A stretch of DNA of 64,000 bases from an uncultured Victivallis sp. (GTDB taxonomy: Bacteria; Verrucomicrobiota; Lentisphaeria; Victivallales; Victivallaceae), in NCBI RefSeq assembly GCF_944389935.1, contig NZ_CALXOE010000010.1; one strand, given 5' to 3'. Position numbers and translations under genes: made by a program. Positions 1-16,950 of this stretch are shown here, one piece after another. The notes under the pieces are model-generated. The model was not told the origin of the DNA and did not search any database. It worked only from the letters and a program-made list of their open reading frames with translations. The number at the start of each line of letters is the position of its first letter. Position 1 is the stretch's first letter.

Positions 1-36
1 GTCTGCGGCAGGGGGAACGTGAGGGAATGGATTGAC

Positions 37-82
37 AAAAAACTTCCCGGCGGGGAATCCCCGTCGGGAAGTTCGTTTTTTT
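37..82. terminator. Bidirectional intrinsic terminator downstream of the secretin pair
   Basis: Stem AACTTCCCGGCGGGG (41-55) / CCCCGTCGGGAAGTT (59-73) with one G-U pair, A-run before and T-run after. Confidence 0.8.
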
Positions 83-85
83 CTC

Positions 86-1711
86 TTAACGCCGATCCGG
101 ATCGAGACCGATCTGATCGAAGCCGTACTCATTTTCATCGATGGATTTGAGACCGAATTCATCGATTTTCCGCTTCGTCTCGGCGGAGAGTTTTTCGATC
201 TCGCCGGAGACCCGGGTTGTGGGAGTTCCGGGCTTGACGGTCAGGACCGCCACGATCCGGCTCTTTTTAACCGTCTCGCTCTCCCCCGAAAAGAGCCACC
301 CGAGCCCGGGGATATCCCCGAGAAACGGAACCTTGCTCACGCTGCGGACCAGGTCGGACTTCTCCAATCCTCCGATGTAGAAGACACTGCCCTTGTTGTT
401 GACCTGCAGCGTTGTCGCCAGCTCGGTCCGGCTGGTGCGCGGAGTCCCGTCGCTGTGGAATCCGAGCAGATTCGTGTTCTCCATCGCAACCCGGACGATC
501 GTCGACTCGCCGTAGACCTCCGGCAGAAGTTCCATCCGGAAACCGAACTCCGCGTTATTGGTTGTGCGCAGCCGGCTCTCTTTCACGGTCGTGACGGTGG
601 TTTCACCGGGTTTGTTCGCAGTCAGCGTCAAAGGCTCGCTCTGTCCCGGAATCGAAATGGTGATCTCGGACGTATCGTTCACGGTTTCCGCAATCTGCGT
701 CTCTCCATCACCGATGACGGGGAAACGGGTCACGCTCTCGATCGTGCCCACCGCCTTGTTCCAGACATTCAGCGTCCCGCTGGTCAACACTTTCGCCTTG
801 CTCTTGCTGACGAGAAAGTCCAGATACTTCGCATTCCACTTCGGATTGAAGTTGATGTAGTTCACATGGGCGTCCTTGACCATTTCCGTCGCGTTGCCGA
901 TCGTTCCGATCAGCGGATCCCATCCGTTCAGATAGGTCGCTCCCGCGGCGAAGAGATCAGCGCCGGGCCCGTTCTTCCACGCCTGGAAATCGACTCCGAG
1001 ATTGCCGTCGTTCTCGCTGTCGATCTCATAGATCGTGTAGGTGAACAGCGCTTCCGAAAGCGGCGTATCGTACTGCGCGAGCAGAGCTTCGATGTTCTTC
1101 TGAGAAATCGGCGTACAGAAGAACAGCAGTGCGTTCATGCCGTTGTCCGGTCGAACAGTGTCCACTCCGTCGAGTTCGACGGCGTCGTCGGCGTGCATGA
1201 TTCCGACCTGTTCAATCAGTTTCGCCAGCGTCGTCGCATCGAAATATTTCGCGTAGTAGACGAAGAAGCGGCGTCCGGCCTGCGCGGAGAGATCGGGTCG
1301 ATCCAGCATCTCCACGACCTGGTCGATGGTCATTCCGTTATCGAGTTTTTCAAAGCGGTACTGCTCCGCCGAGACGATCACCATTCCGGTGCCGTCGACA
1401 TATTTGATCGCTTCGACTTTCGTCTCGTTCGTGTCGATCCGCCGGGACCGGATGGCCGACATCAGGTACGGCCGGATCTCGTAGGGATCGGCGTGCTTGA
1501 GTTTGTACACTTTCGTATAGACATACGGGTCGTTGTTCGTATTGATGAACGTGATTTCGTCGGTCGACTTGTCGATCGACACGTTCAGCTGCGGCTGAAC
1601 CTGGGTCGGCAGCGCCGGCGGAGTCGGGATATCCACGGTTCCCGCACAGAGTTTCCCCGAAACGAGAAACGCGGCGAGAACACCCGATGTAAGTTTCGGA
1701 TTGAAAACCAT
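86..1711 (-). CDS. Secretin-family (type II/III secretion system protein D-like) outer membrane protein, paralog 2
   Basis: Signal-peptide-like N-terminus; N-domain VYKLKHADPYEI; barrel start YTIYEID..NLGVDF; C-terminal IGGLEK..KVPFLGDIPGLGWLF. Start set at ATG 1711 after AAGGAG. Confidence 0.8.
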   Translation of the reverse strand: MVFNPKLTSGVLAAFLVSGKLCAGTVDIPTPPALPTQVQPQLNVSIDKSTDEITFINTNNDPYVYTKVYKLKHADPYEIRPYLMSAIRSRRIDTNETKVEAIKYVDGTGMVIVSAEQYRFEKLDNGMTIDQVVEMLDRPDLSAQAGRRFFVYYAKYFDATTLAKLIEQVGIMHADDAVELDGVDTVRPDNGMNALLFFCTPISQKNIEALLAQYDTPLSEALFTYTIYEIDSENDGNLGVDFQAWKNGPGADLFAAGATYLNGWDPLIGTIGNATEMVKDAHVNYINFNPKWNAKYLDFLVSKSKAKVLTSGTLNVWNKAVGTIESVTRFPVIGDGETQIAETVNDTSEITISIPGQSEPLTLTANKPGETTVTTVKESRLRTTNNAEFGFRMELLPEVYGESTIVRVAMENTNLLGFHSDGTPRTSRTELATTLQVNNKGSVFYIGGLEKSDLVRSVSKVPFLGDIPGLGWLFSGESETVKKSRIVAVLTVKPGTPTTRVSGEIEKLSAETKRKIDEFGLKSIDENEYGFDQIGLDPDRR

Positions 1712-1728
1712 TTGAATCACTCCTTTCC

Positions 1729-3159
1729 TCATTCAGCCTTATTTTCTTTGTTCATTGCGGTCAATGTATCGATCATCTCGCCGGCGGCGGGAGTGGGAAG
1801 ATTCTCCGTCTCAACCGGTTTGGCGGTCATGGTTACAAAGACTCTCAGTTTGCTGTCGACCTTGCTTTCCGAACCGAACAGATACTTCAGCACCGGAATG
1901 CTTCCGAGAAACGGCATGCCGATATACTGTTCGACCATCACATGCTTGTCGAATGCGCCGACGAGTTTCTCCACGCCGGTGTCGAGCGTCAGACTCCCGG
2001 AAAAGCGGTTGCTTTCGATCGAGGCGTTTCCGACATTGTCGACTTCCGCCAGGGAGTTGATCGTCAGACTCCAGTTGCTCATGAGAGTGAGTTTCCCCTC
2101 GGACGGATCGGCGGTGAAGTTGATGGACGGAGCGTAGAACTCGAATTCAAAACTCGACTCCGCCAGCGCACCGATCGCGATGGTCTGATTCTCATCTTTC
2201 ACGATGTTCTGGAATTCCGGGGCAAACGTCAGCCGGAACACCCCTTCCCCGGTGTCGTTCGCCGCCGGATCGAAGCTGTTGATCAGCGTAAGCGATCCGG
2301 ACGACGCGGTCCACGCCTTTCCTTTCTGTGCGAGCATCCGCAGAAAGGTTGCATCGATGTTCGGAGCAACCAGAATGCCGCCGATGCCGTTCACGGAATT
2401 CGGCAGGAAACCGAGAATGCTTTCAAACGCCTCCGGTCCGAGCGAATCGAAATCCGCATGCAGATCCGCGAAGTTGAATCCGGTCGAAAGCAGCTGCGCC
2501 CCGGGTCCGTTCTTCCAGGAGAGATAATCGATTCCGAGTTCACGGAAATCATTATCGCTGACGACGTAAACATCGAACTTCACCTCAAGCTGCGGGACCG
2601 GACGGTCGAGCGTTTTCAGCAAAGAGAGATACGCCTCCCCCTGGGATTTGGAACTCTTGAAATAGAACAGATTGCTCGGGCCATCGTAGAAAGACGCACC
2701 CTCCCCTCCCGCGGAGGTGAACACCTGTTCGAGCGCCTTGTACATCGTTTCGCTGCCGCGATGAACCGGTGCATAGACCCAGCGGCTGATGCCGTCACCC
2801 TCGATGCGCGCCCCGGATTCGTCGACTTTCGGGGATGGATAGTCGAGCGTGGCGATCATCTCGTCGACCCAGGGGAGAAACGTACTCCCGGTGGAGACGA
2901 CGAGAAACTGTTTGCCGCCGCTGGAATAATCGACGCTCTGCACTCGTGACTGGCTGTCGAATCGTTTGACCGCTCCGCGCACAAACGGCATCAGGTCGTG
3001 AGCCCGGACATTTTTGAGTTCATAGACTTTGGTGGTCATGTAGTGCTGATTGCGATCCTCGTTGAATACGATGGTCCGCTGATTGCCCTCTTCCGCGCAG
3101 AGCAGCGCGGGCAGCGTGCACAACAGGGCCGCGAGCTTCCATGGGTTGATGCATTTCAT
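1729..3159 (-). CDS. Secretin-family outer membrane protein, paralog 1
   Basis: Signal peptide; VYELKNVRAHDL N-domain; LEVKFDVYVV..ELGIDY; GMPFLGSIPVLKYLF secretin signature; AGGAGG RBS. Confidence 0.75.
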   Translation of the reverse strand: MKCINPWKLAALLCTLPALLCAEEGNQRTIVFNEDRNQHYMTTKVYELKNVRAHDLMPFVRGAVKRFDSQSRVQSVDYSSGGKQFLVVSTGSTFLPWVDEMIATLDYPSPKVDESGARIEGDGISRWVYAPVHRGSETMYKALEQVFTSAGGEGASFYDGPSNLFYFKSSKSQGEAYLSLLKTLDRPVPQLEVKFDVYVVSDNDFRELGIDYLSWKNGPGAQLLSTGFNFADLHADFDSLGPEAFESILGFLPNSVNGIGGILVAPNIDATFLRMLAQKGKAWTASSGSLTLINSFDPAANDTGEGVFRLTFAPEFQNIVKDENQTIAIGALAESSFEFEFYAPSINFTADPSEGKLTLMSNWSLTINSLAEVDNVGNASIESNRFSGSLTLDTGVEKLVGAFDKHVMVEQYIGMPFLGSIPVLKYLFGSESKVDSKLRVFVTMTAKPVETENLPTPAAGEMIDTLTAMNKENKAE

Positions 3160-3229
3160 TCGGCTACCTCCTGGTTTACGGGTTGACCCAATGGCGCCCG
3201 ATGTCGGACGCCGCGGATATCAATGGTTG

Positions 3230-3246
3230 AGCAGGAAGAATGCCAA
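3230..3246 (-). promoter_or_regulatory. Sigma54-type (-24/-12) promoter of the secretin pair
   Basis: Minus strand TTGGCATTCTTCCTGCT = GG-N10-GC in TGGCA..TGCT context; 16/17 identical to the motif at 14782-14798. Confidence 0.75.
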
Positions 3247-3335
3247 CTTGTAAAAAACGGATGGTTTTCTGCATTTTCCCCCGGAAAACGGCGGCCCGGC
3301 TTCGGATTCCGCTCGAATTCAGGACGTTTCGTGCG

Positions 3336-3375
3336 ACAAAATTGTGTAAGAAAAATCTCCGTTTAACAAAATTGT
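3336..3375. promoter_or_regulatory. Two ACAAAATTGT palindromic sites (candidate enhancer/UAS)
   Basis: ACAAAATTGT at 3336-3345 and 3366-3375, 30 bp apart, ~90-130 bp upstream of the -24 element. Confidence 0.6.
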
Positions 3376-3426
3376 CCTCCCGCAAGCCGGACAGCTTCAA
3401 TGGCTTATCCCGTACATTGCGGGAGG
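3376..3426. other. Stem-loop just downstream of the carboxylase operon (possible terminator or stability hairpin)
   Basis: CCTCCCGCAA (3376-3385) / TTGCGGGAGG (3417-3426); only a weak U-tract on the minus strand. Confidence 0.45.
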
Positions 3427-3438
3427 AGAGAGATACGG

Positions 3439-4272
3439 TCAGAGCTCGGGGAGCAGCATCCGCAGCAGAATCGTGATCATTCCGCCGGGAGTCTCAAGCT
3501 CCTCAAGAATCGTGAAGTGGTTGCGCCCGGCCAGCGTGAACGCGCCGCCGGGAAGTTTCGCCGCCGCCCGATGCCGGGCGAAATCCCAGCTCTGGCGCTG
3601 CAGTTCCGGCAGCTCGTCCGAACCGCAGACCGCGAACAGCGGTTTTTCCGACAGAGGAAGTCGAAGCGGACTCAGGCCGGCGACCTCTTCGGGTTTCAGA
3701 AGAAGTTTATCGTTCAGGCAGCAGAGGCGGATCGGCTCCAGATCGAAGATGCCGCTGATCGCGAGGACACCGGTTACGCCCGGTTCGTCGGCCGCCATGG
3801 CCGCGAGATGCCCGCCCGCCGACCAGCCTGCGACGACGATCCGGGAACGGTCGAATCCGAGAGAATCGGCGTGTTCCCGCAGCCAGCGCAGCGCATCGCG
3901 AATCTCCGTGACGATTCCGGCCAGATTCTGTTCCGGCGCCAGCGTATACCCCGACAGCGCCACCGAAATTCCATGATGCAGCGCCCCCGCCGCCAGAAAC
4001 CGGAACGTCTCCTTGCGCCGCATCTGCCAGTAGCCGCCGTGGATGAACACCAGAAGCGGCGCGCCGGGAGAACCGGCACGGAAAAAATCGATGCGCTGCC
4101 GCTCCCGCGGCCCGAAGCGCAAGTTCAGCTCCCCGGGATATCGCTCCGCCAGCAGACGGCTGCGCGCCTCGAATCCCACGAGAATCCGCGCGCTGTCGGC
4201 GACCGCGCGCGTATTGTCGTAAGCCGCGTCGAGTTCTTCACGGGTCAGGAAATCACGATAGAGCGCTGTCAT
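3439..4272 (-). CDS. Alpha/beta hydrolase, arylformamidase/esterase-like
   Basis: HGGYW oxyanion motif, GWSAGGHL nucleophile elbow, C-terminal GRNHF His; overlaps the end of atzF. Confidence 0.85.
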   Translation of the reverse strand: MTALYRDFLTREELDAAYDNTRAVADSARILVGFEARSRLLAERYPGELNLRFGPRERQRIDFFRAGSPGAPLLVFIHGGYWQMRRKETFRFLAAGALHHGISVALSGYTLAPEQNLAGIVTEIRDALRWLREHADSLGFDRSRIVVAGWSAGGHLAAMAADEPGVTGVLAISGIFDLEPIRLCCLNDKLLLKPEEVAGLSPLRLPLSEKPLFAVCGSDELPELQRQSWDFARHRAAAKLPGGAFTLAGRNHFTILEELETPGGMITILLRMLLPEL

Positions 4273-6007
4273 GGGATGCCTCTCGATGCGATTTCCGTTT
4301 CCGTTCTTTCACCCGGACGCGCCAGTCGGCGACCTCGGAGATGTCCGGCGCATACTCCGCGATGACCGCCTCTCCGATGAATCCCGGCACCCGCCGTCCG
4401 TCCGCCAGCTCCAGGGTGCCGAGCCCGAGCGGAGGGCGGATACCGGCGACAAATTCGGCGAAAGAGTCCGCTTCAAGCTCATAGAGCTCCACATAGCAGG
4501 ATACGCCCCCCCTGCCGGTTCGCAGCAGGGCCGGGCGGGCGCCCCCCTCCTCCAATTCGTACATCCGATAGCATGGAGCGGTTTTCGCGCAGCCGAGAAA
4601 GCGCGCGCCGAGCGCCTCGAGCTCCGGATGCAGCGGCATCCCGGCGAGATGCGCACCGCAGACCGCGATCGGAAACCTCTCCGCACTCCGGAAACGGCGC
4701 GCCGCTTCCAGAAGCCTGTAATCGTCGAACGCTTTCCCCACCAGCGTGATTCCGAAAGGAAGATCTCCGGCGCGATCCGCCGGAACAGCCAGCGCCGAAC
4801 AGTCCAGCAGGTTCATATAATTGGTGTAGTATCCGAGATTGCTGTTGAGCCGGATCGGATCGGCTTCGACCTCGTCGATCCGGTAGATGGTTCCGGCGGT
4901 CGGCGTGAGAATCAGATCCACCGCCGCAAACTGCGCATCCGCCGCCGCCCTGCACTCCTGAAGCCGGTACATCGCCCGGAAAACCTCCGATGGATGCGGC
5001 GTCCGCTCCGGCGTGATGATCGACCGGATCACCGGCAGCACCGAATCCGGATGTGTTTCAATGAACTCCCCGACCGCCGCGTAGCGCTCAAACACCCACG
5101 GCCCCTCGTAAAGCAGCCGTGCCGCCGTCAGAAACGGGGTGAAATCGATCTCCACTTTTTCGCCGCCCGCATCCTGCATTCTCCGCACCGCCCGCCGGAA
5201 CGCCTCCCGGTACTCCTCCCGGCCGAAGAACGCGAGATCCTCCTCACGCGGGACACCGAATTTCCAGTGACGCGGCAGCGGATCACGTTCCGGCAGAACC
5301 CGGCTGTAGGCATCCTCCGGGTCGAAGCGGGCGGTTGTTTCCAGCAGGATTCCGGCATCCTCGAGATTCCGGGCGAAGATCGAAACGCAGTCGAGCGAGC
5401 GGCAGGCCGGCACTACGCCGCGGCAGCTCAGGACTCCCCGGCTCGGCTTGACTCCGACAAGTTCATTGAACGCCGCCGGAACCCGGCCGGAGCCCGCCGT
5501 ATCGGTTCCCAGAGAAAAACTGCACAGATCGTACGCCAGCGCCGCGGCCGATCCGCTGCTCGATCCGCCGGAAACATATCCCGGCGCCAGACGGTTCGGT
5601 GCCGCCCCGTAAGGAGAACGCACGCCGACCAGACCGGTGGCGAACTGATCCATATTCGTCTTGCCGAGCGGAACGGCTCCGGCTTCGATCAGGAGTTCCA
5701 CCACCCGCGCGGAACGCTCCGGCCTGTAGCTGTAGTCCGGACACCCCGCCGTCGTCGGCAGCCCGGCCACATCGATGTTGTCTTTCACGGCAAACGGAAT
5801 CCCGTAAAGCGGAAGTTCCTCCGGCGAAGATGCTTCAAGTCCGGCGAGCCGAACCTCCAGCTGCTCCCGGTCGATCAGAGAAATCCAGATCCCGTCCGGA
5901 GCGGCGGCACATGCGTCGAGCAGTTCCGTAAGGACGCGACGCGGGGTCTTCGACCCGTTTCGATACGCCCGCCTGAGGGCGGCGATCGACAATTCGCAAC
6001 TTCTCAT
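4253..6007 (-). CDS. atzF: Allophanate hydrolase
   Basis: LYGIPFAVKDNIDVAGLPTTAGCP, GGSSSGSA, GTDTAGSGRVPA amidase signature; C-terminal IAVCGAHLAGMPL domain. Confidence 0.95.
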   Translation of the reverse strand: MRSCELSIAALRRAYRNGSKTPRRVLTELLDACAAAPDGIWISLIDREQLEVRLAGLEASSPEELPLYGIPFAVKDNIDVAGLPTTAGCPDYSYRPERSARVVELLIEAGAVPLGKTNMDQFATGLVGVRSPYGAAPNRLAPGYVSGGSSSGSAAALAYDLCSFSLGTDTAGSGRVPAAFNELVGVKPSRGVLSCRGVVPACRSLDCVSIFARNLEDAGILLETTARFDPEDAYSRVLPERDPLPRHWKFGVPREEDLAFFGREEYREAFRRAVRRMQDAGGEKVEIDFTPFLTAARLLYEGPWVFERYAAVGEFIETHPDSVLPVIRSIITPERTPHPSEVFRAMYRLQECRAAADAQFAAVDLILTPTAGTIYRIDEVEADPIRLNSNLGYYTNYMNLLDCSALAVPADRAGDLPFGITLVGKAFDDYRLLEAARRFRSAERFPIAVCGAHLAGMPLHPELEALGARFLGCAKTAPCYRMYELEEGGARPALLRTGRGGVSCYVELYELEADSFAEFVAGIRPPLGLGTLELADGRRVPGFIGEAVIAEYAPDISEVADWRVRVKERKRKSHREASHDSALS

Positions 6008-6031
6008 CGAGTCTCTCTCCTTTCCCTCTGC

Positions 6032-6075
6032 CCGTCCCGCGTCCCGAACCGGACCGGCGTGGAAACGCGGGACGG
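6032..6075. other. Intercistronic stem-loop between uca and atzF
   Basis: CCGTCCCGCGT (6032-6042) / ACGCGGGACGG (6065-6075), 11 bp perfect stem in a 75 bp gap. Confidence 0.55.
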
Positions 6076-6082
6076 ACGAGGT

Positions 6083-9000
6083 TCAATTCGTCTTTACAGC
6101 GAACAGACACTGTCCGCTCTTGACCTCGTTCCCGGCGGCACAGAAGATCCGGACGATTTCGCAGTCGGACTCCGCGGCTACCGGAATTTCGGTTTTCATG
6201 CTCTCGAGCACCGCCAGAATCTCTCCGGCGCGAACTCGTCTGCCGGGCTCGCTGACGTTCAGTTTCCAGAGACTGCCCGCAACCGGCGAGTAAACCCCGC
6301 TCTCACCGGGTTTCAACTCGGCCTCCTCCGCGGGCGCGGCGCTTTCGACCGTATGGCTCTCGAAAGTGAGCTGGCCATTGGCGATCCAGCGCTCTTTCTC
6401 CTCTTCAAAGGCCCGTTTCCGCTTCGTCTCGAAGGCTTCGATGGAAGCGGCGTTCTCCTCGAGGAACTTCTCATATTCCTGAATATCGAACACGCTCTCT
6501 TCCATGCGGATATGGTATTTCCCCGCGATGAAGTCGCGCCGGATTTTCAGCAGTTCATCCGCCTCGACCGGGAAGAACCGGACCTGATCGAAGAATCGGA
6601 GCAGATAAGGTTTGCCCTCCACAAACTCCGGCGTGACGTTGAAGCGGTTCCACATCTGAACCGTCCGTCCGACGAACTGGTAGCCGCCAGGCCCCTCCAT
6701 TCCGTAAACGCACATGTACGCGCCGCCGATGCCGACGGCGTTTTCGGGCGTCCAGGTCCGGGCGGGGTTGTACTTGGTTGTGACCAGACGGCGGAGCGGA
6801 TCCAGCGGCGTCGCCACCGGCGCGCCGAGATAGACGTCTCCGAGACCCATTACGATGTAATTCGCGTCGAACACGATCTTTGCGACCTCCTCGACGGAAT
6901 CGAGCCCGTTGATCCGCCGGATGAATTCGATGTTGTTCGGGCAGCACCAGGGGGCGTCCGGACGAACCGTGCTGACGTACTTCTGAATCGCGAGACGTGT
7001 CGCCGGGTCGTCCCAGCTCAGCGGCAGATAGACCGTGCGGGTCGGAACCGAGCGGATCGTCTCCGTTTTGAGTTTTTCGGCCAGAGCGGCGATCAACTTC
7101 AGGAGCTCCTCCTGCGTCATCTTCGCCGGATCGAAATGAATCTGAATCGAACGGATTCCCGGCGTGATGTCGAGAATCGCCGGCAGGTGCATCTCCTCAA
7201 GTTTGAGCATCCACGCATGCGCCGTAAAGCGGAGTCGCAAATCGATGACCGGCGGTCCGAACTCCAGCAGGAAATTCGCGTCTCCATCCTGACGGCAGAC
7301 GATGCGGGACATCGCGTCCTCACGATGAAACTCCGCCAGAACCGGCGACCCGGAAACCGTGCCGACAGGTTCCGCAACCGGGTGATCCGCCTTTTCCGGG
7401 TGCTCCAGAATCGCCTCGAGCGCCTCGCGACGTTCAGCAGCCTGCGCCGGAGTGACGGGAATGAACTTCACCTTGTCTCCGCTGCGGAGCTGCCCGACTT
7501 TCCAGAGATCCGCCGTGATGATCGTCGCAGGACAGACGAACCCGCCGAGGCTCGGCCCGTCCTTGCCGAGAATCACCGGCATGTCGCCCGTGAAGTCGAT
7601 CGTTCCGACGGCGTAGGCGTTGTCATGCAGATTGGACGGATGCAGTCCGGCCTCTCCGCCGTCCGGACGCGCCCACTTCGGCCGGGGACCGACCAGCCGG
7701 ACGCCGGTACGCGAGGAGTTGTAATGGACCTCCCATTCCGCACGGAAGAACTCCTCGATGTCCTGATCCGTGAAGTAGTCGGGCGCGCCGTGCGGCCCGT
7801 AAAGAACGGCGATCTTCCAGCTGTTCCCGATGGACGGAACGGCACCTGCCGCCGGAGACAGCGGTTCGAAAACCTTCCAGTTGCCGATATGGAGCACGTC
7901 GCCCGCGGCGAGCGCCCTCCCCCCGTGTCCGCCGAAACGGCCGAGCGTAAACGTCGAACGGCTGCCGAGGTACTCCGGCACGTCGATTCCGCCGGCGACG
8001 GCGAAATAACAGCGCTGCCCGCAACGGGTTGTGCCGACTTTGAGCACATCGCCCTTCTTCGCGGCGATCGGCGTGTTCCGGGAGATCTCCGTTCCGTTCA
8101 GTGTCGCCGGAAACTCTCCGCCGGTCAGAGCAAAGAGCGCATCCGTATTGAAGCGGAGCGAGGCGCCCGAAAGCGTCATCTCCAGCCCCGGAGCCTCCGG
8201 CGCGTTTCCGACGATCCGGTTGGCCAGCCGGAAACTGTACGCATCCATCGGCCCCGACGGCGGAACGCCGACCGCCCAGTAACCGAGACGGCCGGGATAA
8301 TCCTGCACCGTGGTCTGCGTTCCCGGGGAGAGAATTTCAAACGTCGGCGCAGAATAGGCATATTCTTTCAGCAGCCAGGTTCCGGCCCGCCCCTCGCGGA
8401 ACGGCGCCATGCCGAGGACGTCGCGCAGCAGCAGAAGATTGGTTTCAAATCCGGCGATCTCGGTCGCCTTGAGCGCTTCTTCCGCCTTGCGGATCACCTC
8501 GGCGCGGTCTCCGCCTTTCACGATGATCTTCGCGAGCAGCGGGTCGTAGAACGCGCTGACTTCAGTTCCGGTCGAAATCCAGGTGTCGCACCGGACGCCC
8601 GCTGGAAACGCCGCGCGCGTGACCAGTCCGCTCGACGGCTGGAAGTTCCGGCCGGGATCCTCCGCGTAAATCCGGAACTCCATGGCCGCCCCCTCGGGAC
8701 GGAAACTCTCCCCCGGCCGGAACGGACTCTCTCCGGCGGCGAGCCTCACCATCCACTCGACCAGATCGATTCCGAACACGGACTCCGTGACGCCGTGCTC
8801 GACCTGCAGCCGCGTATTGACTTCCAGAAAATAGAAACGATCCGCCTCGCTGTCGTATATGAATTCGACGGTTCCGGCAGACCGATAAGCGACCCCCTCC
8901 GCGAGCCGGCGGGCCGCCTCATGAAGCGCGCGCCGGGTCGCGTCCGGCAGATTCGGCGCGGGGGTCTCCTCGATCACTTTCTGGTTGCGCCGCTGGACGG

Positions 9001-9685
9001 AACAGTCGCGTTCGCCGAGAATCGCAACGCCGCCCTTTCCGTCGCCGAAAATCTGCACCTCGACGTGGCGGGCGCGCTCGATGTACTTCTCCAGAAACAG
9101 CCCCGAATCCTTGAAGTTGTTGCGGCTCAGGCGTCCGATCCGTTCAAACCCCTCCGCAAGCTCCTCATCGTTCCGGCAGATGCACATCCCGATTCCGCCG
9201 CCGCCGGCGGTGCTCTTGAGCATCACGGGATAACCGATTTCGGCAGCGGCCCGTTTCGCCGCCTGAACCTCATCCAGAAGTCCGCTCCCGGGGACAAGCG
9301 GAACACTCCAGCGTTCCGCAAGTTCCCGCGCCTTGTGCTTGAGCCCGAAGTCGACGAGCTGCTCCGGCGTCGGGCCGATGAATTCGATCCCGTTCCCGGC
9401 GCAGAGCCGCGCAAAAGAGGCGTTTTCGCTCAGAAAACCGTAACCGGGGTGAATCGCCTGCGCTCCGGTACGGCGGGCGGCGTCAAGAATCGCCTCCACA
9501 TTCAAATAGCTCTCCGCGGCCGATGCGGGGCCGACCCGCACCGCCTCATCCGCCTGCAGGACGTGGGCGGCGGTCGCGTCCGGGTCCGAATAGACGGCGA
9601 CGGACCCCACCCCCATCTTTCTGAGCGTGCGGATGATGCGGCAGGCGATTTCGCCGCGGTTTGCAATCAATACTTTCGTAAACAT
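6083..9685 (-). CDS. uca: Urea carboxylase family protein, probably guanidine-preferring
   Basis: Biotin carboxylase (ANRGEIA, HPGYGFLSEN), carboxyltransferase (GLHPSNLHDNAY, PENAVGIGG, GPGGYQ) and C-terminal biotinyl domain (ESMKTE). Confidence 0.95.
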   Translation of the reverse strand: MFTKVLIANRGEIACRIIRTLRKMGVGSVAVYSDPDATAAHVLQADEAVRVGPASAAESYLNVEAILDAARRTGAQAIHPGYGFLSENASFARLCAGNGIEFIGPTPEQLVDFGLKHKARELAERWSVPLVPGSGLLDEVQAAKRAAAEIGYPVMLKSTAGGGGIGMCICRNDEELAEGFERIGRLSRNNFKDSGLFLEKYIERARHVEVQIFGDGKGGVAILGERDCSVQRRNQKVIEETPAPNLPDATRRALHEAARRLAEGVAYRSAGTVEFIYDSEADRFYFLEVNTRLQVEHGVTESVFGIDLVEWMVRLAAGESPFRPGESFRPEGAAMEFRIYAEDPGRNFQPSSGLVTRAAFPAGVRCDTWISTGTEVSAFYDPLLAKIIVKGGDRAEVIRKAEEALKATEIAGFETNLLLLRDVLGMAPFREGRAGTWLLKEYAYSAPTFEILSPGTQTTVQDYPGRLGYWAVGVPPSGPMDAYSFRLANRIVGNAPEAPGLEMTLSGASLRFNTDALFALTGGEFPATLNGTEISRNTPIAAKKGDVLKVGTTRCGQRCYFAVAGGIDVPEYLGSRSTFTLGRFGGHGGRALAAGDVLHIGNWKVFEPLSPAAGAVPSIGNSWKIAVLYGPHGAPDYFTDQDIEEFFRAEWEVHYNSSRTGVRLVGPRPKWARPDGGEAGLHPSNLHDNAYAVGTIDFTGDMPVILGKDGPSLGGFVCPATIITADLWKVGQLRSGDKVKFIPVTPAQAAERREALEAILEHPEKADHPVAEPVGTVSGSPVLAEFHREDAMSRIVCRQDGDANFLLEFGPPVIDLRLRFTAHAWMLKLEEMHLPAILDITPGIRSIQIHFDPAKMTQEELLKLIAALAEKLKTETIRSVPTRTVYLPLSWDDPATRLAIQKYVSTVRPDAPWCCPNNIEFIRRINGLDSVEEVAKIVFDANYIVMGLGDVYLGAPVATPLDPLRRLVTTKYNPARTWTPENAVGIGGAYMCVYGMEGPGGYQFVGRTVQMWNRFNVTPEFVEGKPYLLRFFDQVRFFPVEADELLKIRRDFIAGKYHIRMEESVFDIQEYEKFLEENAASIEAFETKRKRAFEEEKERWIANGQLTFESHTVESAAPAEEAELKPGESGVYSPVAGSLWKLNVSEPGRRVRAGEILAVLESMKTEIPVAAESDCEIVRIFCAAGNEVKSGQCLFAVKTN

Positions 9686-9694
9686 GATCGTTTG

Positions 9695-10345
9695 TCACTC
9701 CTCTTGATCCCAGATGATCATCTCGACCGGAGTCGGATTGTAATCATTGCAGGGATTGTTCAACTGCGCACAGTTCGAGACGAGAACCAGAACATCCATC
9801 TCCGCAAGCAGATCGACGTACTTTCCGGCACCGGAAATGCCGTCAGCGAATTCCAGATGCCCGCTGTCGTCGAGCAGGACTTTCGTGAAAAAATTCAGAT
9901 TGCAGGTCTGGTCGCGCTTGCTCATCCCCGGCGTCTCCAGAAACTTCCGGACAAAAGTATCGCGGCAGCTGTGCATGTAACGGGTCCGATCGGTGTAACG
10001 GATCGTGTTCCCCTCCGCAGAGCAGCCGCTGCCGAGCGTATCGTGTTCGCCGCAGGTGTCTGCCACCACCCGGAACATGACGTTGTCGTCGTTGGAGCGG
10101 ATTTCTGTTCCAAGTTCGATCAGCGCCTTGCGCTGAGCCGCCAGCGTATTGTTGACGTTGTAGCGCTCGGCCGGGTTGTGCGCATTGTAGAGAAGCATGT
10201 CGACGGACTGGTTGCCGCAGAGATCGATGATCCGCAGGATCTGCCCTTTCTTCACGGTGTGCATCCAGCCGGTTCCGGCCTTGACGGTTTCCGAATAGAC
10301 GGCGGAAGCCCTGTCGCGCGGGATGTCCAACAGCTTATCGTTCAT
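9695..10345 (-). CDS. cgdB: DUF1989 urea carboxylase-associated protein, CgdB-like copy 2
   Basis: GNQSVD..YNA, DTCGEHDTLGSGCS, YMHSCRDTF, VSNCAQLNNPCN. Confidence 0.8.
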   Translation of the reverse strand: MNDKLLDIPRDRASAVYSETVKAGTGWMHTVKKGQILRIIDLCGNQSVDMLLYNAHNPAERYNVNNTLAAQRKALIELGTEIRSNDDNVMFRVVADTCGEHDTLGSGCSAEGNTIRYTDRTRYMHSCRDTFVRKFLETPGMSKRDQTCNLNFFTKVLLDDSGHLEFADGISGAGKYVDLLAEMDVLVLVSNCAQLNNPCNDYNPTPVEMIIWDQEE

Positions 10346-10360
10346 GTTCTTCTCTCCATT

Positions 10361-11005
10361 TCAGTTATCCCAGATGATCATTTTGACCGGCGTCGGATCG
10401 TAGCCGTTGCAGGGATTGTTCAGCTGCGGGCAGTTCGACACCAGAACGATGACGTTCATCATCGCCTGCAGTTCGATGTATTTCCCCGGAGAGGAGATGC
10501 CGTCGGCAAAATTGAGCCGGCCCTCCGCGTCGAGCGGAACGTACATGAAGAAATTCAGATTGTTGACCTGATCGCGTTTGTCCATCCCCGGCGTCGCAAG
10601 CAGTTTGGCCAGAAACGTCTCACGGCAAGCATGCATGTAGCGCGTATGGAACCCGTAACGGATCATATTGCTTTCGCAGGAACAGGCGCTGCCGAGCGTA
10701 TCGTGATCTCCACAGGTGTCGGCCACCACCTTGAGCATGACGTTGTCGTCGTTGGAGCGCAGCTCGGTTCCGAGCCCGACGAGGGCGTTCCGCTGCGCTT
10801 GAACCGTCTGCTGCACGCTGTAACGCTCATAAATGTCATCGGCGTTGTAGAAGATGGTGTCGACCGCCTGATTGCCGTTCACATCGACGATCCGCAGGAC
10901 CTGTCCCTTTTTCACGGTGTGCATCCATCCGTCACCGGCCTTGACGGTTTCGACATAAACGGCATCGGCCTCTTTGCGATTGCTTTCAAGATATTCCGTA
11001 ACCAT
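10361..11005 (-). CDS. cgdB: DUF1989 urea carboxylase-associated protein, CgdB-like copy 1
   Basis: GNQAVD..YNA, DTCGDHDTLGSACSCESN, YMHACRETF, VSNCPQLNNPCN. Confidence 0.85.
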   Translation of the reverse strand: MVTEYLESNRKEADAVYVETVKAGDGWMHTVKKGQVLRIVDVNGNQAVDTIFYNADDIYERYSVQQTVQAQRNALVGLGTELRSNDDNVMLKVVADTCGDHDTLGSACSCESNMIRYGFHTRYMHACRETFLAKLLATPGMDKRDQVNNLNFFMYVPLDAEGRLNFADGISSPGKYIELQAMMNVIVLVSNCPQLNNPCNGYDPTPVKMIIWDN

Positions 11006-11014
11006 GACATCACC

Positions 11015-11746
11015 TCACGCAAGATAAAGTTCAGTTGCAATGAAACCCCGCTCGTTCTCCGGACACCAGGTGAAACAGGGATCCTCTTTTGTGCCGGGTT
11101 CGCAGCGGTAAACCGTCGCCTTGATCGGCTTGCGCGGATATTCGGTCGCGGGAGAAAGCGGATGCATACCGGTATCGAGAATCACCAGCGTATCGATCTC
11201 CGCGCGCAGGTCGACGTAATCGCCGGGTTTGGAGTTGCCCTCGATGAAACTCATGCCACCCTTGTCATCCACAATGACTTTGGAGAAGAAGTTGATGATC
11301 TCCGTGAAGTCGCGTTTGGTCATGCCGTGCTTGCCCAGTTCGACGAGCAGAGAGTCGTAACCGTTCCGGTAGAAGTCGTTGTGCGCCTCCTGATACTCCT
11401 TCTTCCCGAATTTCTTCTCGATGAGGGAGGCGTGGGCGCAGCCGCAGAGCATGTCGTGCCATCCGCAGGTGTCCGCGGGAACGCTCATGAGAATCCGCCC
11501 CATGTCGGAGTAGATGCAGCAATCTTTCGTGAGGCGGCAGATATGTTGAATCTTCAGGGTGTCCCCGAGATTGAACCGTTCCGAGAAATTCGCGGCGTTG
11601 TAGAACATGGCCGAAACGTTTCCGCCGCCCTCGATATCGGTCAGCCGCAGAGCCTGGCCCCGGCGAATGATGCGCGAGTAGTTCCAGCCTCCGGCGATGG
11701 TGGTTTCCGTGATGATCCGATCCGTGATGTCGCTGTTCATAATCAT
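11015..11746 (-). CDS. cgdA: DUF1989 urea carboxylase-associated protein, CgdA-like
   Basis: GGNVSAMFYNA, DTLKIQH, YSDMGRILMS, CGWHD, INFFSKV, HPL motifs typical of the first subunit. Confidence 0.85.
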   Translation of the reverse strand: MIMNSDITDRIITETTIAGGWNYSRIIRRGQALRLTDIEGGGNVSAMFYNAANFSERFNLGDTLKIQHICRLTKDCCIYSDMGRILMSVPADTCGWHDMLCGCAHASLIEKKFGKKEYQEAHNDFYRNGYDSLLVELGKHGMTKRDFTEIINFFSKVIVDDKGGMSFIEGNSKPGDYVDLRAEIDTLVILDTGMHPLSPATEYPRKPIKATVYRCEPGTKEDPCFTWCPENERGFIATELYLA

Positions 11747-11762
11747 ACCTCCTGTTCAGGTT

Positions 11763-12662
11763 TTACAAAAATGTCTTGTCGCCGACCATGTTGACGACTT
11801 TGAATTCACACTCGTCTTCCCGCTTGACGGGGGGACGGATCAACTTGTCGATGTGCTCCCGGGTTGCGAGGAATTCCGGTTCGAGCAGCATCCGCGAACG
11901 GCGCGGCCGCGGGAGCGGAACTTCGATGAGTTCATTGATTTCGCCCGGATTCGCTTTCAGAGCCAGAATGCGGTCGGAGAGATAGACCGCCTCGTCCAGA
12001 TCGTGCGTCACGAAAATGATCGTGATGTCGATGTTCCGCCAGACTTCGAGCAGATAGTTCTGCATCTGAGTCCGGGTCTGCGCGTCGAGCGCCCCGAACG
12101 GTTCGTCCATGAGCAGAACGCGCGGCTGAGGCGCGAGGGCTCTGGCGATCGCCACACGCTGCTGCATGCCTCCGGAAAGCTGTCCGGGATAGTAGTCCGC
12201 ATACCGGGCCAGCCCGATGATGTCCAGCCACTGCAGCGCGATGTTTTCGGCGGTGTCGCGATCCTTGCCGATCGATTCCAGCCCGAACATGACGTTCCGG
12301 CAGACGGTCAGCCAGGGGAAGAGCGTGTACTTCTGAAAGACCATCCCGCGTTCCGCGCCGGGAGCGACGACCGGTTTGCCGTCCAGCAGAATTTCCCCGG
12401 AAGTCGCCGTCTCGAGTCCGGCCAGAATGCGGATCAGCGTCGACTTTCCGCAGCCGGAGGGACCGATGATCGAGAGGAACTCCCGCTGATGGACCTGAAA
12501 CGAAATATCTTTCAGGACAATCTGGTTTTTTCCGCTGGAAGTCGGAAACTCCTTGAAGAGATTCCGGGTTTCCATGATGACCGGGCGGCGAACCAGCCGG
12601 GCGAACCGGTCACGCACCTCGGGACTCATCATTTGTTTGTAATCAGGCAGAGTGCTGTTCAT
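11763..12662 (-). CDS. ABC transporter ATP-binding protein (TauB/SsuB-like)
   Basis: [29 protein letters not shown]; start set at ATG 12662 after AGGAGG. Confidence 0.93.
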
Positions 12663-13749
12663 CTCTTTTCCTCCTCTCCTCTTTGGAAAGAACGATCGAA
12701 AACACCTGGTCGCGGGGACCGAAAATCTCCTCCGCCGCCCGGTAGAAAATCCCCTTGTGCTTGCTCTCCCACGGGAAGATCTGGCGGCCGAACCACGCGA
12801 GGAACATATCGCAGAACAATCCGATGCAGCCGATGATGATGATCGCGGCATACACATTGGAAAAGTCCCGGTATTTCGCCTGCTGGTTGATGAACCAGCT
12901 GATTCCGGAGCTCGTTCCGACGACCTCCGCGACGATCAGATAGGTCCACGCCCATCCGAGCAGAATCCGCATATCCTTGTAGAGCCGCGGGAGAACACTC
13001 GGGATGATGACTTTCATGAGGATTCTTCTCCGGGATGCCCCGAGAGTCTGAGCCGCTTCGATCAACGCGCCGTCCGCGCTGCGGGTGGTATTGGCCACCA
13101 TCGGCAGCTGCTGGAAAAAGGTTCCGATGAAGATGATCGCAATCTTCGGCGCATCGTTGATTCCGAGGATCGCCACGCACAGTGTCGCAAACACCGGCGC
13201 GGGGAAATAACGGAAAAATTCGATGAACGGTTCGATCAGACGCTCGAAAAACGGAAATGTCCCACAGAGAATCCCCAGCGGGACACCGAAGAGCGAAGAG
13301 ATCAGAAATCCGAGAAACACAATCCGGATGCTGTGCCCGATGCTCTCGTGAAACCACGCCTCCCCGTCGCGGCGCGGCGGAGTCAGAAACGCGGTCACCA
13401 GCGACCGGGCAACCTGATGCGGCGCAGGGAGGTAAGCGGGATTCGCCCGCTCCCCCCGCATGATTTTTCCGCCGCTCGAGGCCAGTTCCCGATTTTCCTC
13501 TTCAAACGCGCTGCGCTCGATAAGGTCGCCCGGGGCGCACAGGAAGCTGTCCCCCGCGTCCGTCACCCGAACCAGCGGATGATAGAGAAACGGGACGTAG
13601 CTTACCAGGCACCAGAGCAGGAGCGGCAGTGCGAACGAGAGAAACAGCAGAATATATTCCTGACGTCTGGTTAATTTTTTTCGTATGGCAAAACAGCCAA
13701 CGTTCTGCATTTTCATCATGAACTTCCTCAATCCGGAACCGTGAATCAT
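12643..13749 (-). CDS. ABC transporter permease (TauC/SsuC-like)
   Basis: Hydrophobic helices, EAAQTLGAS loop, [11 protein letters not shown]; ATGA overlap with upstream gene. Confidence 0.92.
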
Positions 13750-14738
13750 TTCTGACGGGACAGATACTCTTTCGTAAAGATCGGCGTGATATGCCGGTTC
13801 ACATCGACGCTTTTCTTATAGATCTTATTCCCGAAGAAGAACTTGTCGACAATTTCCGAAGAACCGTAAATGGAGTCGAATCCCGGCGTTTTACGGAAAC
13901 GGGCCAGCGCCTCCTCGGCGGTGAGAAAACGAGTCCCGTCGATATAGTCTCCATATTTTTTCTCAGAAACCCCGACCCGGTCCGCCATGATTTTGATCGC
14001 TTCCGGCCGGGTTGCCGGATCGTTCAGGAAATCGATGACATCGTACCAGGCGGCAATGACTTTCTTCCATTCATCGCGATGCTTCATCAGACTTTCCGTC
14101 GAAACCGTCAGCACATCGTAGATGATTCCGGGCTCGTCCGCGCTCGTATAGATGGCTTTTGATCCCTTCACGAGTTCAAGCGCGTTGCCCGAGTGCGGCT
14201 GCCAGGCGACCACGGCATCGACCTCGCCGGTCTCGAGGATCTGCGCGGCCTGATGGGTCGGCATATTCACGAGTTCCACGTCCGACTCTTTCAGTCCGTT
14301 TTTCGTAAGAGCATTGATGAGAAGCGCATGACTCAGACAACCGAATTCAACCCCGACCTTTTTGCCCTTGAGTTCCTTGACGGAATTGATTCCGGGGCGG
14401 GCGACGATTTTGTCGTTGCCGTTGCTGTAATCGTTGATGAGGATGATGACGTTCCGCGCGCCGGTCGCATTGAGCACCATCGCGTCGCCGTTGGAGAGTC
14501 CGACCGCATCGATTTTCCCGACGGAAAACGCATCAAGTGAGGGCCCGTACTCGAACCACTCGAGTTTGACCTTGACGCCGTGTTTCTGGAAAAATCCCTT
14601 CTTGTCGGCGATCTCCCAGGCGGTCCAGCCCGGCCAGTCGCTGTATCCGATCCGGAGCGTCGGCTGATCGGCCGCCATCATCACCAGAGGAGCAATGGCA
14701 CTGAGGATTCCAGCTATGACAAATTTAAAACCACTCAT
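13746..14738 (-). CDS. ABC transporter substrate-binding protein (NMT1/SsuA-like, urea carboxylase-associated)
   Basis: Signal peptide, IGYSDWPGW, DYSNGNDKIV, AWQPH; start ATG 14738 after AAGGAGG. Confidence 0.9.
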   Translation of the reverse strand: MSGFKFVIAGILSAIAPLVMMAADQPTLRIGYSDWPGWTAWEIADKKGFFQKHGVKVKLEWFEYGPSLDAFSVGKIDAVGLSNGDAMVLNATGARNVIILINDYSNGNDKIVARPGINSVKELKGKKVGVEFGCLSHALLINALTKNGLKESDVELVNMPTHQAAQILETGEVDAVVAWQPHSGNALELVKGSKAIYTSADEPGIIYDVLTVSTESLMKHRDEWKKVIAAWYDVIDFLNDPATRPEAIKIMADRVGVSEKKYGDYIDGTRFLTAEEALARFRKTPGFDSIYGSSEIVDKFFFGNKIYKKSVDVNRHITPIFTKEYLSRQK

Positions 14739-14781
14739 TTTCAACCTCCTTTTCTCATGAACGGTTGGATGCCCTCTTTGC

Positions 14782-14798
14782 AGCAGGATGAATGCCAA
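14782..14798 (-). promoter_or_regulatory. Sigma54-type (-24/-12) promoter of the guanidine/urea operon
   Basis: Minus strand TTGGCATTCATCCTGCT = GG-N10-GC, ~45 nt upstream of the first start codon. Confidence 0.78.
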
Positions 14799-14844
14799 CC
14801 TTGTTTTTGAGGGGGAACAGGTCGATACAGCCCGATTTTGTTTT

Positions 14845-14886
14845 ACAATTTTGTTCAAACCGGAGATCGCATACGACCAATTTTGT
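14845..14886. promoter_or_regulatory. Two ACAAWWTTGT-type sites (candidate enhancer/UAS)
   Basis: ACAATTTTGT at 14845-14854 and CCAATTTTGT at 14877-14886, 32 bp apart; same motif as 3336-3375. Confidence 0.55.
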
Positions 14887-15233
14887 CTAAACGCCTCCGG
14901 ATTCGATCAACCGGGGAACGGCTCGCTCCGACCGCCGTCGGCGACAGCCGGATCGCGGGCCGAGACCGTGAACGGCCGCATATCGGACCGGGTTTGGTCG
15001 GGCGGAGAATCCGGATATGCCCCCGGCGTTTTCAGAAAGCGGAATTTACATTTTCCGGGATTGCGTTCCGGAAATTCCGGAGGCCGGCCGCCCCGCCTCC
15101 ATTTTCCCGCTTTTCCGCGGTGCCGGGCGAAAAAAGGAAAAAAATCCGCCTCCGGGGGTGAAAAAAAACAAATCTGGTGTATATTATTTCAATTTCCCGT
15201 TTCTAAACAAGCAACTTCGCAAGGAGAACCAAC

Positions 15234-15938
15234 ATGAGTTGTCCGTATCAGTGCTCGCACGAAGTCGAGCAGATGTGCCGCGTCGCCAAAGGCGTCAAAC
15301 ACGGCCCGGCCCCGATTCCCGAGGAGGGGAAGTGGGTCAAATCCAAGCAGATCTCCGATATTTCCGGCCTGACCCACGGCGTGGGCTGGTGCGCTCCCCA
15401 GCAGGGCGCCTGCAAACTCACGCTCAACGTCAAGGACGGCGTCATTCAGGAAGCTCTCGTCGAAACCCTCGGCTGCTCCGGCATGACTCACTCCGCCGCC
15501 ATGGCGTCGGAGATTCTCCCCGGCAAGACCATTCTCGAGGCTCTGAACTCCGACCTCGTCTGCGACGCCATCAACGTCGCCATGCGTGAACTCTTCAAAC
15601 AGATCGTCTACGGCCGTACCCAGACCGCGTTCAGCGAAGGCGGACTGCCCATCGGCGCCGGTCTTGAAGACCTCGGCAAGGGACTTCGTTCCCAGGTCGG
15701 GACCATGTTCTCCACCCTGGAAAAGGGACCGCGTTACCTCGAGATGGCCGAGGGATACGTCCTCGAGCTCGGACTCGACGAGAACAGCGAGATCATCGGC
15801 TACAAGTTCGTCCACCTCGGCAAAATGATGGAAGCCATCCGCAAGGGCGTCGAACCCGCCGAAGCATTCAAGGCCAATGTCAAGAGCTACGGCCGCTTCG
15901 ACGAAGCCGTCAAGAAAATCGACCCGCGCAAAGAATAA
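15234..15938 (+). CDS. NifU/IscU N-terminal-like Fe-S scaffold family protein (GGGtGRT partner)
   Basis: GWCAPQQGACKL, GCSGMTHSAAMA, LVCDAIN Cys pattern; AAGGAG RBS. Confidence 0.85.
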   Translation: MSCPYQCSHEVEQMCRVAKGVKHGPAPIPEEGKWVKSKQISDISGLTHGVGWCAPQQGACKLTLNVKDGVIQEALVETLGCSGMTHSAAMASEILPGKTILEALNSDLVCDAINVAMRELFKQIVYGRTQTAFSEGGLPIGAGLEDLGKGLRSQVGTMFSTLEKGPRYLEMAEGYVLELGLDENSEIIGYKFVHLGKMMEAIRKGVEPAEAFKANVKSYGRFDEAVKKIDPRKE

Positions 15939-15951
15939 GGAGTTCATGACA

Positions 15952-16950
15952 ATGAGCGTGCAATTTGAAGGATACGAGCGCCGGATCGGAAAAATCGAAA
16001 AGGCGCTGAAAGAGTACGGCATCGAGTCCCTCGAGGCCGCCCGCGACCTCTGCCTCTCCAAGGGCGTCGACGTCGACAAGATCGTCCGCGGCGTGCAGCC
16101 GATCGCATTCGAGAACGCCGTCTGGGCTTACACCCTCGGCGCCGCCATCGCCATCAAGAAAGGTTCCAAAGATGCCGCCGAAGCCGCCGAGAACATCGGA
16201 ATCGGTCTCCAGGCGTTCTGCATTCCGGGGTCCGTAGCGGACTCCCGTCAGGTCGGTCTCGGCCACGGCAACCTCGCTGCGATGCTGCTGCGCGAAGAGA
16301 CCAAGTGCTTCTGCTTCCTCGCCGGCCACGAGTCGTTCGCGGCGGCCGAGGGCGCGATCGGCATCGCCAAGACCGCCAACAAAGTCCGCAAGGAGCCGCT
16401 CCGCGTCATCCTGAACGGACTCGGCAAGGATGCCGCCTACATCATCAGCCGCATCAATGGTTTCACCTACGTTGAGACCGAGTATGACTACTACACCGGC
16501 GAACTGAAGATCGTCGAGGAGAAGGCGTTCTCCAACGGGCCGAAAGCGGCGGTCAAGTGCTACGGCGCCGACGACGTCTCCGAGGGTGTTGCGATCATGA
16601 TCAAAGAGGGCGTCGATGTTTCCATCACCGGAAACTCCACGAACCCGACCCGGTTCCAGCATCCGGTCGCCGGCACTTACAAGAAGTGGGCGATCGAGAA
16701 CGGCCGCAAATACTTCAGCGTCGCCTCGGGCGGCGGCACCGGCCGCACGCTGCACCCGGACAACATGGCTGCCGGTCCGGCCTCCTACGGCATGACCGAC
16801 ACGATGGGCCGCATGCACGGCGACGCGCAGTTCGCGGGTTCCTCCAGCGTTCCGGCGCACGTCGAGATGATGGGTCTCATCGGCATGGGCAACAACCCGA
16901 TGGTCGGCGCTTCGGTCGCCGTCGCGGTGGCGGTTTCCCAGGCGAAGTAA
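15952..16950 (+). CDS. GGGtGRT protein (function unknown)
   Basis: Contains ASGGGTGRTLHPD signature; follows the NifU-like gene. Confidence 0.92.
   Translation: MSVQFEGYERRIGKIEKALKEYGIESLEAARDLCLSKGVDVDKIVRGVQPIAFENAVWAYTLGAAIAIKKGSKDAAEAAENIGIGLQAFCIPGSVADSRQVGLGHGNLAAMLLREETKCFCFLAGHESFAAAEGAIGIAKTANKVRKEPLRVILNGLGKDAAYIISRINGFTYVETEYDYYTGELKIVEEKAFSNGPKAAVKCYGADDVSEGVAIMIKEGVDVSITGNSTNPTRFQHPVAGTYKKWAIENGRKYFSVASGGGTGRTLHPDNMAAGPASYGMTDTMGRMHGDAQFAGSSSVPAHVEMMGLIGMGNNPMVGASVAVAVAVSQAK

Follow-up and report, generated by a model that had tools for sequence, protein, structure and literature searches.

In textbooks, secretins are exit ports or pilus ports of the outer membrane that are always tied to an inner-membrane machine, which raises the question of what two of them could be doing in an operon of their own under a promoter shared with genes for nitrogen scavenging. 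Such an operon lies on the minus strand at positions 86-3375 of the 64,000-nt stretch of DNA from an uncultured Victivallis sp. analysed here (hereafter the window, in whose coordinates all positions are given), where two secretin genes, A and B, follow an operon for urea/guanidine carboxylase (uca). The reading which we favour, with a probability of roughly 0.55, is that the pair encodes a nitrogen-starvation-induced, probably two-subunit outer-membrane channel for nutrient uptake. All the evidence is computational: the genes, motifs, regulon membership, conservation and gene neighbourhoods were read from the window, from the whole genome (3.64 Mb in 98 contigs, 99.7% complete) and from its relatives, whose genes are crude open-frame calls with the cited cases checked by Pfam or tblastn. 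Genomes, contigs and loci are designated by G, C and L numbers, respectively.

The secretin unit and its promoter

The elements of the unit, followed by those of the neighbouring uca operon, are:

86..1711 (open frame reaches 1732), minus strand: secretin B, 541 aa from the ATG at 1711 or 548 aa from 1732; Pfam Secretin 74.4 bits, E 1e-20
1729..3159, minus strand: secretin A, 476 aa, a divergent paralogue of B; Pfam Secretin 28.9 bits
3160..3219, minus strand: predicted 5' leader with an AGGAGG ribosome-binding site
3230..3246, minus strand: -24/-12 (sigma-54) promoter of the secretin pair, TTGGCATTCTTCCTGCT, GG-N10-GC
3336..3345: predicted proximal activator site, ACAATTTTGT, centred 96.5 bp upstream of the -24 GG
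3366..3375: predicted distal activator site, ACAATTTTGT, at a distance of 30 bp to the proximal site
41..73: bidirectional intrinsic terminator at the end of the two-gene unit, 15-pair stem with 10 G-C pairs and a T run on both strands
3376..3427, minus strand: hairpin behind the last gene of the uca operon, predicted RNA folding energy -28.4 kcal/mol (z -2.8), followed by ACAAUUUUGUU
3439..14738, minus strand: predicted co-regulated uca operon (Pfam and NCBIfam) with genes for the binding protein, permease and ATPase of an ATP-binding cassette (ABC) importer, three DUF1989 proteins, urea carboxylase, allophanate hydrolase and an alpha/beta hydrolase
14782..14798, minus strand: -24/-12 promoter of the uca operon, TTGGCATTCATCCTGCT, GG-N10-GC
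14845..14886: pair of predicted activator sites at the uca promoter, 32 bp apart: ACAAAATTGT at 14845-14854 and, as an imperfect palindrome, ACAAAATTGG at 14877-14886

The initial annotation had described the promoter elements of both operons, two palindromes upstream of each and a strong terminator behind the secretin genes, and all of these were found again; the two promoters share 16 of 17 positions, and the GG and GC dinucleotides are correctly placed in each. Only the consensus proposed for them, TGGCA-N6-TGC, had to be corrected to TGGCA-N7-TGC. The transcription start is predicted near 3219 from the position of the -12 GC at 3232-3231. No sigma-70-like promoter was detected in positions 1-3700 of the window, and no Rfam riboswitch or RNA family in positions 1-16000.

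The hairpin at 3376..3427 is probably the terminator dividing the uca and secretin transcripts. It directly adjoins the distal of the two activator sites at the secretin promoter, so termination and activator binding could interact.

A predicted nitrogen-assimilation regulon

The genome possesses an intact rpoN gene and six real enhancer-binding proteins, as expected for a sigma-54 promoter. The palindrome ACAAWWTTGT occurs in the 3.64 Mb at 15 sites and TGGCA-N7-TGC at 76, many of the latter being false positives within coding DNA, e.g. at pilin N-termini. A palindrome and a promoter lie within 250 nt of each other at only five promoters, namely the two in the window, two divergent ones on C2 and a single one on C15, with about 0.08 such co-occurrences expected by chance according to our estimate, which answers the earlier concern that the motifs might be frequent regardless of gene function. 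The C2 promoters drive the genes for type III glutamine synthetase (glnN) and gltB, and the C15 promoter drives glnK-amtB. The gdhA promoter, with the sites ACAAAAATGG and ACAAAAATGT, was added by a separate scan for good -24/-12 elements.

A scan with relaxed sites (pairs of ACA-N4-TGT located 26-36 bp apart) returned exactly five loci genome-wide, all of them beside sigma-54 promoters: divergent glnN/gltB, glnK-amtB, gdhA, the uca operon and the secretin pair. The spacing within the pairs is 30-32 bp, and relative to the GG the proximal sites are centred at about -52, -75 and -96.5, in steps of about two helical turns which would keep the activator sites on the same face of the helix. The proximal site of the secretin promoter, at -96.5, is further from its promoter than those at the other regulon promoters. 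According to these motif scans, the signature marks only nitrogen units (glnN, gltBD, glnK-amtB, gdhA, uca) and the secretin pair, which is the sole non-metabolic member of the predicted regulon.

Two of the enhancer-binding proteins have a GAF-AAA+-HTH_8 architecture, and one of these is encoded inside the gltB-gltD-dapF-aminotransferase operon, behind the sigma-54 gltB promoter. These two proteins, and not an NtrC response regulator with NtrB, are the candidates for the activator to which the search proposed in the initial annotation led. It is very likely from the motifs and the company they keep that the pair is a nitrogen-limitation operon dependent on sigma-54, with paired sites from which a GAF-type protein probably activates it. 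The genome has two other A/B pairs, both devoid of the sigma-54 signature, so nitrogen control appears to be specific to the orthologue group of the window pair.

Conservation in related genomes

By its homologues, the organism belongs to Victivallis, within the Lentisphaerota. The promoter is retained at the orthologous pairs of at least six other genomes, which differ in the genes next to the pair. It reads TGGCAY-N5-YTGCT and is located 73-97 nt upstream of A (about 240 nt in one case), and the ACA..TGT sites are kept together with it by orthologues of 49-98% identity. The A protein is 79% identical in a metagenome-assembled genome labelled V. vadensis, with an AraC-type gene as neighbour, 61% identical in V. 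vadensis DSM 14823, with OmpR/HisKA neighbours and the same promoter, 56-62% identical in G011, G036 and G017, with various neighbours, and 49% identical in a 5.6 Mb Victivallales genome, where the pair is divergent from trkHA. Since the type strain DSM 14823 has both the orthologous pair and the promoter, the hypothesis is testable in a cultured organism.

In two genera the pair is physically coupled to glnK and amtB. It is divergent from glnK-amtB in G017, with two sigma-54 promoters around common activator sites, and in G021 a sigma-54 promoter with paired sites is followed by amtB-glnK-secA-secB. The same design of promoter and sites is found at the glnK promoters of four relatives and at the V. 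vadensis uca promoter, so that in the relatives, too, the sites are held in common with core nitrogen-assimilation genes.

Synteny of the pair with uca, which the initial annotation proposed to look for, is present in the closest relatives but was rejected as a general rule: elsewhere the orthologues adjoin AraC, OmpR/HisKA, trkHA or glnK genes, and the uca operon of V. vadensis adjoins a different A/B pair, divergent from it and followed by an ABC importer.

In the A-protein tree, the promoter-bearing orthologous pairs fall together in a single clade with support. Two further members of the clade have no promoter of their own and stand at the end of a kinase-kdpF-kdpABC-kdpD(N) operon driven by sigma-54. 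In these two loci, L064:8411-19001 (G036:C25, promoter TGGCATGCGTCTTGCT) and L074:3200-11252 (promoter TGGCACGAATTTTGCT), the sequence from the sigma-54 promoter through kdpFABC to the terminal A/B pair suggests sigma-54 control of a potassium uptake system that has a partner in the outer membrane. The L064 operon opens with a histidine-kinase gene, and a gene for an NtrC-type response-regulator activator is located just upstream of its promoter.

The A and B proteins

Both proteins can be assigned to the secretin superfamily, as their C-terminal domains score above the Pfam Secretin (PF00263) cut-off of 27.5 bits, and they are full-length paralogues of each other with 24% identity (E 3e-26), in agreement with the initial annotation. 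The N3/Secretin_N domain (PF03958) scores 27.4 and 22.4 bits for the two proteins, just below its cut-off of 28.2. The start of B is more likely the ATG at 1711, as Met8 is invariant among homologues and is preceded by a GGAAAGGAG ribosome site; the N-terminus of B contains a hydrophobic, signal-like stretch. An exact-sequence look-up of B returned no record.

The best PDB match of B by phmmer is GspD (E 9e-14). The AlphaFold2 model of A, with a moderate predicted local distance difference test (pLDDT) value of 65.7, consists of a barrel and two beta-alpha-beta-beta-alpha N domains (41-105 and 125-184), and the Foldseek search with it gave probability 1.0 to ExeD, GspD and InvG. Neither protein reaches the cut-offs of the three machine-specific families, which are 351 for GspD of type II secretion systems (T2SS; TIGR02517), 284 for PilQ of type IV pili (TIGR02515) and 238 for SctC of the type III secretion system (TIGR02516): B scores 90.8, 51.4 and 47.3 bits, respectively, and A 25-28 bits over the three, with 25.3 for GspD. 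No homology to classical porins (Porin_1, Porin_4, Porin_O_P) was found for A or B, which matched secretin models only.

The genome contains 11 secretin genes in total, including three A/B pairs of the window type whose A-A and B-B similarities are congruent. There is also a second type of tandem secretins, with proteins of 863 and 841 aa that are about 26% identical (G000:C33:35666-40808; L024:15168-19597); a PilM-like gene and two additional open frames are located upstream of them. Because of this position, paired secretins may also serve the pilus-type system of the organism.

The A/B family and its gene neighbourhoods

On the sequences compared, tandem secretins of the A-then-B type are a Lentisphaerota-only family. 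Of 41 family genomes, 39 have A-type genes, and none of the 27 genera sampled is without them. A precedes B on the same strand at 52 of 52 loci, and in a second set of 80 loci wherever the contig continues. As the initial annotation stated, there is no gene for a secretion ATPase, platform protein or pilin in the unit, and none was found within about 12 kb of it. Likewise, no ATPase, platform or pilus/T2SS family recurs beside A/B pairs in the neighbour census. Pilin-like genes are the commonest neighbour family (12 loci); they were considered as a link to a machine and rejected, their frequency being by our estimate no higher than genomic density predicts.

The genes which do stand beside the pairs are frequently those of uptake systems, with pstSCAB-phoU directly downstream of the pair in several genera. 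In the second census, which covered the 80 named Lentisphaerota A/B loci and counted neighbours up to 6 kb away, pst was found at 14 loci, amtB/glnK at six, kdp at two, trkH at one and uca or an NMT1-type ABC importer at three, i.e. at 26 of 80 loci in total, or about a third. Each of these uptake operons is single-copy or nearly so, which places the adjacency far above random placement, with counts that are inflated by shared descent. On gene content, the window pair would be the nitrogen member of a Lentisphaerota-specific A/B family whose other members go with pst, kdp, trk, ammonium and ABC operons.

In the second A/B pair of the genome, a gene for an APC-family amino-acid permease begins 61 bp after B (L023:12242-13792; G000:C6), and the same arrangement was found in G036 (L101). 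A is often preceded by a gene for a small lipoprotein of about 150 aa without a Pfam match, which is a candidate pilotin or accessory subunit; in one large family branch it immediately precedes A in the same orientation (L084:11521-11970, L105:11480-11941 and at least 10 more loci). The window pair has no such lipoprotein upstream.

Proposed function and alternative explanations

According to the mechanism that we propose, a GAF-AAA+-HTH enhancer-binding protein would bind the two ACA-N4-TGT palindromes, three helical turns apart, and loop to the sigma-54 RNA polymerase at the -24/-12 promoter, which it would open, the same design driving glnN, gltBD, glnK-amtB, gdhA and the urea/guanidine carboxylase operon. 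A and B would then be exported and would probably co-assemble as a two-subunit secretin-type pore, forming the outer-membrane leg of nutrient acquisition in nitrogen starvation. Small nitrogen compounds or cations (ammonium, guanidinium, urea) might pass through such a pore into the periplasm, to be taken on from there by AmtB and the uca ABC importer.

We infer the hetero-oligomer as well as the direction and nature of transport; that the channel is hetero-oligomeric and takes up small nitrogen compounds or cations is a proposal to which we would give even odds. Permeation is favoured over secretion of scavenging enzymes because K+, NH4+ and phosphate have no macromolecular precursor. Of the two functions that the initial annotation considered, the stand-alone portal is accordingly the one better supported, by adjacency to pst, kdp, amtB, trk and ABC importers, and the gate of a pilus machine is less supported. 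The Pfam models Porin_1, Porin_4 and Porin_O_P have no match in the 99.7% complete genome, which is weak but consistent evidence for an uptake role. More tentatively still, Lentisphaerota in general might use A+B channels free of pilus and ATPase as starvation-inducible nutrient pores, with different pairs wired to nitrogen, phosphate and potassium uptake.

Several points weigh against a dedicated uptake channel. About two thirds of the family loci have no uptake operon within 6 kb, and the locus counts are inflated by synteny which related genomes share by descent. Missing Pfam porin matches are weak evidence in a poorly studied phylum. The gate is not readable from either model, that of B (pLDDT 48) being too poor to inspect it. 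An open pore of secretin size would be costly for the cell, and to our knowledge every characterised secretin works with an inner-membrane machine. Partners for such a machine do exist here, given that ATPase/platform clusters of the PilB/PilC type and Tad type (C49, C59) have no adjacent secretin and that at least 57 pilin-like DUF1559 proteins are encoded in the genome. Finally, in its model A has N-terminal ring-type domains like those by which GspD docks its partners.

The last four of these points are equally the grounds for supposing that the pair, under the same nitrogen control, is the outer-membrane port of a T2SS or of a machine like the type IV pilus whose other genes lie elsewhere; starvation would turn it on, either for the secretion of scavenging enzymes or for the uptake of DNA or peptides. 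The GspD/XcpQ-like N domains of A would fit such a port, the larger tandem pair does lie downstream of a PilM-like gene, and P. aeruginosa reportedly has a dedicated T2SS (Hxc) that is induced by phosphate limitation. We nevertheless regard this explanation, the main rival, as less likely, since the regulon signature is found on no machine gene, no pilus or T2SS gene recurs beside A/B pairs, with the pilin-like neighbours by our estimate at no more than genomic density, and the pairs within kdp operons or next to trk and amtB go with ions for which there is no macromolecular source.

Two further explanations would leave the uptake channel without its regulation or without any role. If the motifs were coincidental or served another signal, the pair would stand outside nitrogen control, and the unusual distance of its proximal site at -96.5 could be taken as a hint of this; it is nonetheless improbable that all five paired-site loci would then lie beside sigma-54 promoters, with the other four belonging to core nitrogen assimilation, that orthologues of several genera would keep the signature and that the pair would be coupled to glnK-amtB in G017 and G021. 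Even less credible, to the point of being nearly negligible, is the possibility that the genes were left behind by a filamentous phage or a decayed secretion cluster and have no current role, to which the orphan state of the unit and the best PDB sequence match of the N-terminal part of A, pIV of phage f1, might point, as both frames are intact, the pair is present across the family (39 of 41 genomes, 27 of 27 genera) with conserved gene order and regulation, and there are no phage genes nearby.

Comparison with known systems

The GspD proteins (PulD, EpsD, ExeD, XcpQ) share the C-terminal secretin domain of A and B and have N3-type ring domains in front of it, as A and B probably do, and GspD is the best PDB match of B by sequence and of A by fold. 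A and B differ from them in scoring far below the TIGR02517 cut-off, in a much shorter periplasmic part and in being always two tandem paralogues, with no gspC-M genes nearby, encoded with ion or nutrient importers. The pIV protein of filamentous phages resembles A as a short secretin with few N domains; in contrast to pIV and to HofQ/PilQ, the unit described here lacks genes for phage functions or competence, encodes two subunits and occupies a conserved position in the chromosome within nutrient regulons. Leaky variants of pIV and PilQ pass small solutes.

The regulon resembles sigma-54 regulons of the NtrC/NifA type in its -24/-12 promoters, its paired sites in helical phase and its targets, i.e. 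glutamine synthetase, glutamate synthase (GOGAT), PII-AmtB and scavenging operons. Unlike NtrC, the candidate activator has a GAF sensor, as in the NifA architecture, and no receiver domain. The NifA site is TGT-N10-ACA and the NtrC site TGCACC-N5-GGTGCA, whereas the site here is ACA-N4-TGT, and the regulon includes an outer-membrane secretin pair.

As to function, the proposed logic would be that of PhoE in E. coli and OprP/OprO in Pseudomonas, in which an outer-membrane channel is co-regulated with the matching high-affinity importer of the inner membrane when a nutrient is limiting. The likeness is proposed for function only, these proteins being trimeric porins of 16-18 strands with no homology to A and B. 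If the proposal is true, the A+B channels of Lentisphaerota fill the role that porins of the PhoE/OprP type have in Proteobacteria and would be the first hetero-oligomeric, uptake-dedicated secretins. Machine-free, obligately paired secretins wired to nitrogen, phosphorus and potassium starvation would widen the known roles of the secretin family and would address how small nutrients pass the outer membrane in gut bacteria of the Planctomycetes-Verrucomicrobia-Chlamydiae (PVC) group, which are without recognisable porins. The literature searches turned up no description of secretins that are paired or hetero-oligomeric or that belong to pst, kdp or amt operons, and no study of nitrogen control in Lentisphaerota. 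What is new here is the nitrogen regulon and its conservation, the sister clade in kdp operons and the locus counts; the regulon, with sigma-54, a GAF-type activator, paired ACA-N4-TGT sites and six promoters, is a first sketch of nitrogen control in this phylum.

Other sigma-54 promoters and activator genes in the genome

Good -24/-12 promoters are also present at dnaK (G000:C39:2765, plus strand) and clpB (G000:C71:6600, plus strand). They have no palindromes of the nitrogen type, which points to another activator and suggests a sigma-54-dependent heat-shock regulon with an activator of its own. At G000:C3:2642-5481, a single ACAAATTTGT palindrome is located by the sigma-70-like promoter of an aminotransferase gene which is followed by the gene for the second GAF-type activator (C3:3952-5481), and this palindrome may be an autoregulatory site. 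On C62 there are divergent sigma-54 promoters (G000:C62:699, minus strand, and 845, plus strand), one for a 493-aa enhancer-binding protein with no recognised sensor domain and the other for a cysteine-rich open frame of 68 aa.

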